IMG/VR virus record: IMGVR_UViG_3300048930_000283
Direction: 5' to 3' (one strand)
Length of the DNA stretch: 42,873 bases
Source of the DNA: a virus
Taxonomy: Duplodnaviria > Heunggongvirae > Uroviricota > Caudoviricetes
The notes under the pieces were generated by a model, which was not told the DNA's origin, did not search any database, and worked only from the letters and a program-made list of their open reading frames with translations. Every line of letters begins with the position of its first letter. The first letter of the stretch is position 1. Below are positions 6,657-11,032 of this stretch, piece after piece. The position numbers were made by a program, and so were the translations under genes.

Positions 6657-7274
6657 TCATTTTTGTGTCATTCCTCTTTTAAACTCGGGGTTCTGACGAA
6701 TAAAAGAGTTCACATCTTCTTTCAATATGAATTTATTAATTTTTCCGTTTGTTATCCAACATCTATACTCATTAGATTTCTTATTCTTTTTAGATGATGC
6801 TGATCTTCTCATACATGCATCTTTAGTATGAGAAGATATCATTGCTTTCTTGTGAATACTTCTATCTTTGCTAAATGATGCTGGGTTAATATCACCAAAC
6901 CCATTATAACTTCTTTTCTTGTTTGCTTCAACAGCATATTCGTTATATCCACCTCCTAAATTCTCATCAATTAAATTTGCCCATTCTCTTGACTCAACTA
7001 TATTATTTTCTTGACTAAATTTTAATGCAGTCGTTTTGCAATCAGACTCATTTTCAAAGTACCCAAGAATTACTGTTGTTATGTCAAATCCATGTTTTCT
7101 TAAATGGGCGCGCCAATACTTTCCTGAGCCAAGATAGGTGAATGGATCTTTTATAGTTTTACCGAAATACTTTAACCCAGTTTTGTTATGTGTCTTTATG
7201 TATAGATATGTGGGTTTAAACAAAATTAACAACCTTTCCTGAAATACTAACAAATATAAAATATTTATCAGCAA
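6657..7274 (-). CDS. Seg-like GIY-YIG homing endonuclease (true start probably slightly downstream)
   Basis: TYLYIK..KYFGKT..YLGSG; C-terminal WITNG..RG. Confidence 0.85.
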   Translation of the reverse strand: MLINILYLLVFQERLLILFKPTYLYIKTHNKTGLKYFGKTIKDPFTYLGSGKYWRAHLRKHGFDITTVILGYFENESDCKTTALKFSQENNIVESREWANLIDENLGGGYNEYAVEANKKRSYNGFGDINPASFSKDRSIHKKAMISSHTKDACMRRSASSKKNKKSNEYRCWITNGKINKFILKEDVNSFIRQNPEFKRGMTQK

Positions 7275-8891: not shown

Positions 8892-8965
8892 TGGAGCCCT
8901 CGGCCAGAATCGAACTGGCACCAAACCAAGTTTAGGAAACTCGGGGCTACTCCATTAGCGAGGAC
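8892..8965 (-). tRNA. tRNA-Arg(CCT), atypical D region
   Basis: CGAGT-TTCCTAA-ACTTG; CCA; 5' end overlaps the ORF stop at 8955. Confidence 0.75.
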
Positions 8966-9761
8966 TTAGTTCTAAATATGTACCATCACGAGCGCAATAT
9001 TCATTACCAAACTTATACTCACGACCGCATGATGGACAATACTTTTTTCGTTTAACTGTTATGGGTTTAACATCATCTATACCCACCAATTGAATAATCA
9101 TTGAATGAGATTCTGTTTCCAAGGCACCAATATATCCATAGGTGAATTCTTGGTTTGATTCTGATCCCTTAACTGTTATACCAGGATCATTGAATGATGA
9201 TCCACCCCTGAGAACCGAATTCGTGGAGACAGTACCATACCAATTTGAGTCTGGATCTACAGTCCATGGACGTACCCAAGTGTTCTCCCATGGTTTATAT
9301 GGTGGTACGTATGGATAGTAGGGTCTAACAACTTTTTCGTATTGAAATCCAATACGAATTAAACCATCTTCTGAACCAACTCCTCTGTGATCTTCAATCT
9401 CAGATGTTCTTTTAATGAACTTGAACTTGCGACCTTTATACATTGAGTCGCCTAGGAATCGTTCAAGATCAATTGATCCCATGGAGTCAACCAGCAATCC
9501 ATTTTGGGTTACGTTCTCACCATCTATCTCGATGTTTACTATTGCTTTTTGTGTGTTTAAATTTTTGATAAAGATTGAGTATTCTGAGTTCCATGGAAGA
9601 AAAACTTTATCCCCCTGTTCTCTTAATACCTTACCTTTTACCTTGACAGTTGCTACTAACTTATTTGAATACATGCTCATTTTACCTCCTTGTAACGATT
9701 GATGGACTAACAATCCAAAGTTTAAAGTCCATTGGTTAAGCATGATGTAGTTGTTACTCAC
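8955..9761 (-). CDS. conserved hypothetical protein with a C-terminal zinc ribbon (probable start 9680)
   Basis: CPSC..YC at C-terminus; GGAGG RBS before MSMY. Confidence 0.75.
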   Translation of the reverse strand: MSNNYIMLNQWTLNFGLLVHQSLQGGKMSMYSNKLVATVKVKGKVLREQGDKVFLPWNSEYSIFIKNLNTQKAIVNIEIDGENVTQNGLLVDSMGSIDLERFLGDSMYKGRKFKFIKRTSEIEDHRGVGSEDGLIRIGFQYEKVVRPYYPYVPPYKPWENTWVRPWTVDPDSNWYGTVSTNSVLRGGSSFNDPGITVKGSESNQEFTYGYIGALETESHSMIIQLVGIDDVKPITVKRKKYCPSCGREYKFGNEYCARDGTYLELSPR

Positions 9762-10338: not shown

Positions 10339-10353
10339 AGTAAATCCTTATTC

Positions 10354-10429
10354 TGGAGCTCTGGTGCAGAATTGAACTGCAATTTCTTCATTACCAATGA
10401 AGTGTAATTAACCATTATACGACAAGAGC
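10354..10429 (-). tRNA. tRNA-Thr(GGT)
   Basis: CTTCA-TTGGTAA-TGAAG; CCA. Confidence 0.9.
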
Positions 10430-10432
10430 ATT

Positions 10433-10677
10433 TGGTCATCTAATAGCCGAGGTTCTGTATCAGTACATATGTACCTAATCTATCATTTATCTCAGTTTTT
10501 GTCAAACTGGCACCGAAGTGCTGCCACAACCCGAACCTATAAGCAGAAGTTTCCCAGGTTCTGTTTGTGTTGCTTACTATATCACGGTGGTTTAACGATC
10601 ATTGATCTCCCACTCGACTTCTGCGTAAGCCTCGAACTTCCTCTACCCATAAAGAGCAGCGATAGATTTGATGACCA
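10433..10677 (-). ncRNA. rnpB: RNase P RNA, minimal (245 nt) with a reduced S-domain
   Basis: P1 TGGTCATC/GATGACCA; P4 strands GAGGAAGTTCGAGGC and ACAGAACCTCGGCTA; P5 GCTTAC/GTAAGC; P6-like GCAGAAGT/ACTTCTGC. Confidence 0.85.
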
Positions 10678-10678
10678 T

Positions 10679-10877
10679 TAAGAAATATTCACTTTACTGC
10701 GCAGCAACGATCATTCTTACGTTGCAATCTGGAATGACTTATTATCAGTTACTGTTGGCCTATTCACTGATTGTTTATCATTCGCTTGCCTCACTCAAGC
10801 CTGCTGCAGACAGGTGGTTTGATATTTTAGCAGCAATGTCCTGCGACTTTACGTCAGAACGAGGTGAATATTTCTTA
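10679..10877 (-). ncRNA. unidentified structured ncRNA
   Basis: perfect 14-bp terminal stem; lies between rnpB and tRNA-Val. Confidence 0.5.
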
Positions 10878-10878
10878 G

Positions 10879-10953
10879 TGGTCGATCCTACAGGTTACGC
10901 TCCTGTTACTCTTCCTTGTCACGGAAGTGTGATAGCTACTTCACCAAGGATCG
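10879..10953 (-). tRNA. tRNA-Val(GAC)
   Basis: CTTCC-GTGACAA-GGAAG; CCA. Confidence 0.85.
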
Positions 10954-10955
10954 AA

Positions 10956-11032
10956 TGGTACCCCCAGAGAGATTCGAACTCCCGGCTTCTTCGTTCGAAG
11001 CGAAGCACTCTAGTCCACTGAGTTATGGGGGC
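10956..11032 (-). tRNA. tRNA-Arg(TCG)
   Basis: CTTCG-CTTCGAA-CGAAG; CCA. Confidence 0.9.

Follow-up and report, generated by a model that had tools for sequence, protein, structure and literature searches.

The window, that is, the whole stretch of 42,873 nt analysed here, is part of the genome of a large tailed phage and encodes a class II ribonucleotide reductase, tail-fibre-like proteins, a T4-type DsbA regulator, several homing endonucleases and a gp61-like primase with 37% identity to cyanophage gp61; of its 31 ORFs with 150 aa or more, 30 are on the minus strand. An RNA island at about 7.3-20.4 kb comprises 27 tRNA genes (ARAGORN), a permuted tmRNA and a GOLLD RNA (184 bits). Within this tRNA gene array, between tRNA-Val(gac) and tRNA-Thr(ggt), positions 10433-10677 hold a 245-nt RNase P RNA gene on the minus strand (read from 10677 to 10433). 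An earlier note, made from the letters of the DNA, had proposed a phage-borne minimal RNase P RNA of 245 nt at this place; its length and bounds are exact, as an 8-bp P1 stem (UGGUCAUC, 10670-10677, with GAUGACCA, 10433-10440) closes the RNA, and the strand, which it left unstated, is the minus strand. Thirteen studies of activated sludge, bioreactors and aquatic habitats, six of which are metatranscriptomic, have runs that contain the stretch, and contigs of four metatranscriptome runs span the gene, although assembled contigs cannot show transcription, ends or level.

At the gathering score, which is 97 bits for RF00011 (RNaseP_bact_b) and 100 bits for RF00010, an Rfam scan gives no match at 10433-10677. 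In E-value mode RF00011 aligns over its full length (model positions 1-365) with 10439-10674 of the minus strand at 48.2 bits, with an E-value of 3.9e-12 for the 521 nt searched, or about 3e-10 scaled to the window. The covariance-model check proposed in the earlier note thus returns a significant match of bacterial class, but one that stays under the Rfam threshold. In the alignment the C-domain is complete while the model positions of P5.1 and P7-P12 are deleted or replaced by short stretches, which agrees with the previous description of a recognisable catalytic domain that has almost lost its S-domain. Compared with shuffled sequences, the fold has z = -3.1 on the minus strand and z = -1.9 on the plus strand. 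In the Rfam clan competition (CL00002) class B ranks best for the window copy and class A for all relatives, and the archaeal type T model (RF02357) is never best for either.

Five JGI contigs of the same phage population carry an RNA that is 100% identical, and a Logan contig (L105) differs from the window copy at two unpaired positions. A more distant homologue of 273 nt lies at the syntenic site (L100:5279-5551) of a 57-kb IMG/VR contig (G001), which was found through its primase (66% identity) and has the same island order as the window (GOLLD, tmRNA, Trp, Arg, Val-gac and onwards). RF00011 finds no match on the G001 and G002 records even at E<=10, and since a clear homologue in G001 is missed in this way, Rfam is insensitive to the phage family. 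Because the window and G001 represented only two independent lineages, further ones were sought with a pattern from the motifs GAGGAAGTTC.GG and GTGGGAGA, which retrieved nine loci from viral contigs. Seven of the nine are also matched, immediately 3' of the motifs (E 9e-14 to 8e-6), by R1, a covariance model of the 3' 145 nt only, so that its matches are independent of the motif pattern; the window copy itself scores 190 bits with R1. The remaining two retrievals (L182 and L184) were rejected as chance matches in coding sequence. As the copies in L178 and L186 are identical, the seven contigs amount to six further lineages, all on large-phage contigs (12 to 358 kb) that have tRNA arrays; L181 carries a permuted tmRNA in addition, and L183 a GOLLD RNA. 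Against RF00010 these six are sub-threshold class A matches of 41.8-67.4 bits (cut-off 100), and with the window at 48.2 bits no member of the family reaches a gathering threshold.

The family also includes a cultured virus, Stenotrophomonas phage DLP6 (KU682439.2), in which R1 matches 105882-106017 (43.5 bits, E 9e-10) and RF00010 matches 105774-106022 (54.7 bits, under the cut-off). By its P1-to-P1 bounds the DLP6 RNA measures 245 nt; it occupies an unannotated stretch between a hypothetical CDS and a tRNA-Arg(CCG) gene that begins a few nt after it, and the DLP6 paper makes no mention of RNase P or a ribozyme. Family genes always lie in the tRNA islands of large phages, where they share the signature GAGGAAGUUC..GG, GUGGGAGA, AAACAG and CGGGUU together with a reduced S-slot, all of which the window copy possesses. 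In L108, a related lineage with a tRNA island of the same kind, the RNA is absent at the syntenic site, as only about 90 nt separate the 3' half of a split tRNA from tRNA-Thr(ggt); a 196-aa HNH-type ORF appears to split this tRNA (L108:4339-4975), the 3' half of which ends at about 4975.

Other routes to relatives were unproductive. Searches of deposited phages by blastn with the window, L181 and L183 RNAs gave no match to the RNA, so that a covariance model is needed to detect the family. The exact pattern AGAGGAAGTTCGAGGC gave 11 matches in coding sequence, GGTTCGGGTTGTGGCAGC gave one chance match plus G001 in viral contigs and 64 chance matches plus G001 again in metagenomes, and all four matches of a J18/2...J2/4 junction pattern were due to chance. 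Among neighbouring genes, tRNA-Thr(ggt) is too diverged between lineages to serve as a search anchor, relatives of the ribonucleotide reductase proved unsuitable as lineage markers, and the neighbour protein at 8955-9761 has no relative in viral contigs.

All of the elements named in the earlier note (P1, P2, P4, P5, a P6-like pseudoknot and P15) are present in the window RNA, and to these can be added P3, P16, a P15.1-like UUCG hairpin, P18, P19 and the bulged U of P4. In P1 a GG/CC of the window is AA/UU in G001. P2 (AUCUAUC, 10661-10667, forming 7 bp with 10478-10484) covaries family-wide and differs from that of G001 by one double and one single compensating change, and the P3 hairpin (CUGCUC-UUUAU-GGGUAG, 10643-10659) is seen in the RF00011 alignment, in the fold and in the comparison with G001. 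The 5' strand of P4 with CR-I (AGGAAG-U-UCGAGG including the bulged U, 10630-10642), whose core GAGGAAGUUC is invariant in nine lineages, pairs with the CR-V strand ACAGAACCUCGGCUAU (10443-10458), AAG-U-UCGAGG being opposed to CCUCGGCU with the bulged U kept. CR-V carries ACAGAAC..GGCUA, of which ACAGRAY is conserved across the family, and CR-I reads GGAAG-U in the window, one A fewer than the universal GGAAAG. P5 is formed by CUUAC (10625-10629) and GUAAG (10573-10577). The adjoining strand GCAGAAGU (10617-10624) forms the 8-bp P6 pseudoknot with ACUUCUGC (10543-10550) in the P16/17 loop, and the location of this partner in the apical loop of P15/P16 corresponds to the P6 topology of type A RNAs.

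J5/15 (CAACACAAAC, with a CAAAC tract), P15 (CACAA/UUGUG) and P16 (GAACCU/AGGUUC) together occupy 10525-10572, and both stems covary. The L15 loop GGG (10530-10532) is part of a CGGGUU that is invariant in nine lineages, and J18/2 (AGAUAAAU, 10485-10492) fits the RF00011 consensus AGAuAgAU and is conserved in the family; J18/2, CR-I, CR-V, J5/15 and the 'GGGU' CCA-binding loop of L15 are thus all retained. Between J18/2 and P15 lie the P18 hairpin (10493-10509) and the P15.1-like UUCG hairpin (10510-10521), while an optional P19 hairpin (GUAC-AUAU-GUAC, 10463-10474) is found in the window and L105 and is cleanly absent in G001. In L105 (L105:2178-2200, window position about 10563) the final A of the CAAAC tract of J5/15 is replaced by G; the tract corresponds by position to the E. 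coli A248 region, which contacts nucleotide -1, and the change is seen in a single contig and may be an assembly error.

What is left of the S-domain occupies 39 nt between the 5' strand of P6 and the 3' strand of P5 (10578-10616), close to the 40 nt estimated before. It consists, in this order, of a P7-like stem (CG.GUGG/CCACCG), a 4-bp hairpin (GAUC-AAU-GAUC) and the conserved GUGAUAUA, after which the 3' strand of P5 follows; P8-P14 with CR-II and CR-III are missing.

The predicted structure can be judged from substitutions between lineages. In the alignment of the window with G001 (A2), 73 of 73 proposed pairs are standard in every sequence, and 12 pairs have changed on both sides (two in P1, one in P2, three in P4, one in P5, four in P6 and one in P7), seven of them in the pseudoknots P4 and P6. 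When the partners are slid by 1-3 columns as a control, pairing falls to 32-40% with 0-2 double-change pairs, and no shuffle attains 12. The family-wide comparison covers the eight metagenomic lineages, with DLP6 analysed separately. Over the 3' domain 96.8% of cells are paired and 17 of 25 pairs have changes on both sides, in an alignment fitted to the model. For P4, 47 of 48 cells are paired in the eight lineages, which show six sequence combinations; with DLP6, where six of six cells are paired, the combinations number seven. P5 occurs among the eight in six complementary versions (CUUAC/GUAAG, CUUUC/GAAAG, CAUGC/GCAUG, CGCC/GGCG, CUGC/GCAG and CUGGC/GCCAG), and P1 differs yet remains complementary in seven lineages. 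P2 is likewise lineage-specific and complementary, the P1 and P2 of L180 and L178 having been left out of the count owing to unreliable automatic assignment.

P6 is kept in all members and covaries at homologous positions in two subfamilies, reading GCAGAAGU/ACUUCUGC, GUGAAAGA/UCUUUCAC and GUGAGAAU/GUUCUCAC in the one that resembles the window and GAGCAG/CUGCUC, GAACAG/CUGUUC, GAGUAG/CUACUC and GAGCAA/UUGCUC in the other. Covariation of P1, P2, P4, P5 and P6 thus extends over lineages of 39-56% GC, and the single-stranded elements GAGGAAGUUC, AAACAG in J5/15 (family consensus GCAAnnnAAACAG) and CGGGUU in L15 are invariant in nine lineages. As judged by this pattern of substitutions, the predicted RNA structure is under purifying selection, and the RF00011 match and the covariation uphold the view of a phage-borne RNase P RNA by identifying it as a homologue of bacterial type.

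The S-slot is the variable part of the family. The distance between the two strands of P5 is 44 nt in L179, 47 nt in the window, 67 nt in L181 and 85 nt in G001 (with an S-slot of about 77 nt against 39 nt in the window), and rises to 97 nt in L180, 113 nt in L185, 135 nt in L183 and 235 nt in L178. Constant in the slot are the P7-like GUGG...CCAC stem and the GAGA that follows it, all distal parts being variable. L181 has the same design as the window, and so does DLP6, with CGAGUGGGAG, a GUAA-capped hairpin and then ...CACCACCGUGAUAAA. In L180 the P15.1 and P18 hairpins are lost as well. Judging from these lengths and alignments, loss or replacement of the S-region is under way in the family, with the window copy among the smallest.

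Measured against type A RNase P RNA (E. coli M1 RNA or rnpB, RF00010), with which the phage relatives score best, the phage RNA shares P1-P2-P3, P4 with CR-I, CR-V and the bulged U, and P5, and likewise a P6 pseudoknot that joins J5/7, the strand following P5, to the P16/17 loop; P15/P16 bearing a GGU-type CCA-binding loop, P18 and the J18/2 sequence AGAUxAAUG are also common to both. It differs from type A in its length of 245 nt compared with 367 RF00010 model positions, in having only a P7-like stem in place of P8-P14, CR-II and CR-III, in its CR-I of GGAAG rather than GGAAAG, in being virus-encoded and in scoring below the gathering threshold. With type B (B. subtilis, RF00011), the best match of the window copy, it has in common the hairpins at the P15.1 position and at P19, but it lacks P5.1 and P10.1, its P19 is optional in the family, and it possesses P6 and the P16/17-type extension that type B does not have. 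Archaeal type T RNAs of the Thermoproteaceae, cited in the earlier note as a known S-domain-reduced form, have lost nearly all of the S-domain and work like a C-domain-only enzyme (PMC3579882). The two are alike in the natural loss of nearly the whole domain, but the phage RNA is not related to type T: type T belongs to an archaeal lineage with different core details and a multi-protein holoenzyme, and since the best Rfam models are bacterial (class B for the window, class A for the relatives), the phage RNA is of bacterial ancestry and its loss is independent of, and convergent with, that in type T. A further parallel is the engineered E. coli construct Eco CP RPR (PMC5839562), in which the C-domain likewise acts alone, depends on a P6-type interaction and can dispense with P18; it is a laboratory construct of low activity, while the phage RNAs are natural conserved genes that, unlike it, keep a small conserved S-slot element (GUGGGAGA...CCACCGUGAUAUAG).

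On these comparative grounds the gene is a phage version of the bacterial RNase P catalytic RNA reduced to its C-domain, for which we infer catalysis, a protein partner and a role in vivo along the following lines. In our view the RNA likely functions as a catalytic subunit for trimming the pre-tRNAs of the phage itself, probably together with host RnpA, and recognises them by U at -1, G at +1 and the encoded CCA instead of the elbow. It would be transcribed within the minus-strand island of tRNAs and non-coding RNAs and then cut out by processing: neither a sigma-70-like promoter nor a T4-type late promoter nor a terminator was found next to the gene, so that it is probably excised from the island transcript. 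A gap of 3 nt separates its 3' end from tRNA-Thr(ggt) (10354-10429, minus strand), a layout that is alike in G001 and, with tRNA-Arg, in DLP6, so cleavage by RNase P at +1 of this tRNA would release the ribozyme and set its 3' end. The RNA is predicted to fold into a P1-P2-P3, P4 and P5-P15-P16 core, with P4 and P6 as the pseudoknots that lock it, and most likely borrows the host RnpA protein, which is assumed because no Ribonuclease_P Pfam domain or RnpA-like gene is found among the 47 small ORFs of the window, itself part of the genome.

The holoenzyme would remove the 5' leaders from the roughly 28 or more tRNA precursors of the phage. The L15 GGG(U) loop would pair with the 3'-CCA of the substrate, J5/15 and the active site would read nucleotides -1 and +1, and RnpA would contact the leader. 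The parts that are kept are those that form the RNase P active site and hold the acceptor end of the substrate; gauging the acceptor/T-stem stack and docking the T-loop/D-loop elbow are the tasks of the S-domain in bacterial RNase P. Without an S-domain the elbow clamp would be impossible, so determinants read by the C-domain would be needed; elbow-independence would thus follow from the missing domain. The C-domain of the E. coli RNA cleaves alone, slowly in vitro, with an efficiency that depends on a P6-type interaction (the 'P6-mimic'), and P18 is dispensable once the S-domain is gone (PMC5839562). Retention and loss in the phage family follow the same pattern, P6 being universal and P18 lost in L180. 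The absence of the RNA from the syntenic site in L108 indicates that it is dispensable and an accessory gene.

The tRNAs of the window carry the signals that such an enzyme would read: 23 of the 27 have an encoded 3'-CCA, nucleotide -1 is U in 19 and G in none, and nucleotide +1 is G in 18. Their T-loops bear on the proposal of the earlier note that an elbow-independent enzyme would suit many tRNAs with non-canonical T loops. Nine of the 27 predicted tRNAs have non-canonical T-loops, such as AGCGUAA in Val-gac, AGCAUUA in Ile-gat, AUCGUUA in Tyr, AUCGUCA in Trp and AUCGAAA in Glu, and several tRNAs with odd T-loops also lack the D-loop GG, which makes 'many' a fair word, although two thirds (18 of 27) are canonical. 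A link between the RNA and odd elbows is plausible and partly supported, with the nine non-canonical loops in its favour and the 18 canonical ones and the L108 island without the RNA against it. T-loops drift fast between close lineages, as the tRNA-Thr(ggt) of G001 (L100:5557-5627) has a non-canonical AGCGUUA and its orthologues in the window (UUCAAUU) and L108 (UUCGAGU) are canonical. A bolder and rather doubtful extension is that large phages carry an elbow-blind RNase P with which their tRNAs could drift in T- and D-loop shape and become poor targets for host tRNA-directed defences while still maturing, ribozyme and tRNA set co-evolving as a private translation-supply module. If elbow-blind reading is true, new specificities would be tried out in the variable S-slot (44-235 nt).

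The retained core can also be read in other ways. The regions of the C-domain that hold RnpA, namely P2-P3, J18/2 and the surroundings of P4, are all kept, and an RNA that is itself a poor catalyst might soak up the host RnpA, thereby stopping host tRNA maturation or redirecting the protein. The lack of a visible phage RnpA gene among the 47 small ORFs of the window fits such a sponge, as does the altered CR-I (GGAAG-U), which could weaken catalysis; we nevertheless regard it as unlikely, given that the elements for substrate binding and chemistry (CGGGUU of L15, the A-tract of J5/15, the bulged U of P4 and P6) are invariant or covarying and that about 28 tRNA genes call for more RNase P activity and not for less. 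Bacterial RNase P is known to have non-tRNA substrates, and loss of the S-domain might have freed the core for host or phage mRNAs, island RNAs or defence RNAs. Consistent with this are the structured and abundant 200-nt RNA that adjoins the 5' end of the ribozyme (described below) and an S-slot that is highly variable and filled by other inserts in relatives, but no candidate substrate was identified, the constant genomic partner of the gene is a tRNA array and the U-1, G+1 and CCA signals are found on tRNAs, so that retargeting appears distinctly unlikely.

The short distance to the downstream tRNA, 3 nt to tRNA-Thr in the window, a few nt to tRNA-Arg in DLP6 and 5 nt to a tRNA-Thr-like gene in G001, would also suit a ribozyme that mainly cuts a tRNA fused to its own 3' end or the island transcript. 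In the six other family members examined, the 140 nt downstream contain no tRNA, and the invariant CCA-binding loop and full core equally suit action in trans, which leaves a cis-acting module very unlikely. Least credible of all, and close to dismissed, is a functionless, decaying relic of a captured host rnpB. Its sub-threshold Rfam scores and its absence from one sister lineage (L108) would be expected of a relic, yet the pairs are 100% conserved with many compensatory changes, the RNA is conserved over phages that differ widely in GC content and genome size, one of them cultured, and its sequence is identical in five independent samples. Trimming of the phage's own pre-tRNAs by a working catalytic RNA is the reading we prefer.

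In the searchable literature RNase P RNA is a gene of cells and organelles, and no description of a virus-encoded one was found, the texts consulted including the Bcheck survey, a review of RNase P from 2024 and a paper on tRNA clusters that bear GOLLD; as few subscription journals were covered, this absence is not proof. Rated against the published literature, a bacterial-type RNase P RNA that is borne by viruses and has lost its S-domain independently of archaeal type T would be new. Because every copy lies under the Rfam threshold, the gene has been missed by standard annotation. With a conserved form encoded by viruses, the translation-related functions that large phages bring along (tRNAs, tmRNA and GOLLD) would extend to a catalytic RNA, and there would be a natural experiment on how little ribozyme suffices, in which evolution repeatedly kept the C-domain and P6 and dropped or replaced the S-domain, as laboratory truncations predicted. 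With an unannotated copy in the cultured phage DLP6, activity, protein partner, substrate range and fitness effect are directly testable.

Several further observations concern the surroundings of the gene. The 200-nt spacer just upstream of the ribozyme (10678-10881, minus strand) folds with a 14-bp closing stem (z -4.6) and has neither an Rfam match nor similarity to RNase P. Three studies have RNA runs in which it assembles as a separate short contig, at a depth of 237-381 compared with 18-46 in the flanks, and contigs from two studies connect 10876/10881 directly back to 10682/10685, which suggests an RNA that is circular or joined head to tail. G001 carries a 68-aa ORF in its place; owing to this and to the lack of Rfam or RNase P similarity, the idea that the 200-nt RNA is a conserved S-domain acting in trans was discarded. 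Two polymorphisms affect the tRNA array. Directly downstream of the ribozyme, inside tRNA-Thr(ggt) (10343-10396), some contigs have an insertion of about 850-865 nt with a 244-aa ORF, a population polymorphism (L014:1478-2329, RNA run X17), and inside tRNA-Arg(tcg) (10985-11007) contigs of three runs have 21 nt replaced by 147 other letters, a second insertion or replacement polymorphism. A CUA-anticodon tRNA (an amber suppressor, 'Pyl' in ARAGORN) is encoded in L100 (1872-1946) and L108 (1467-1543) but is missing from the same place in the window. Finally, the 167-kb contig L181 encodes a two-piece tmRNA (6659-6983, minus strand) that matches the betaproteobacterial model RF01850 with 100 bits, and its tag ANDDTFEVRLAA resembles the tag ANDSAYFGELRLAA of the window, which hints that the two phages may have related hosts.
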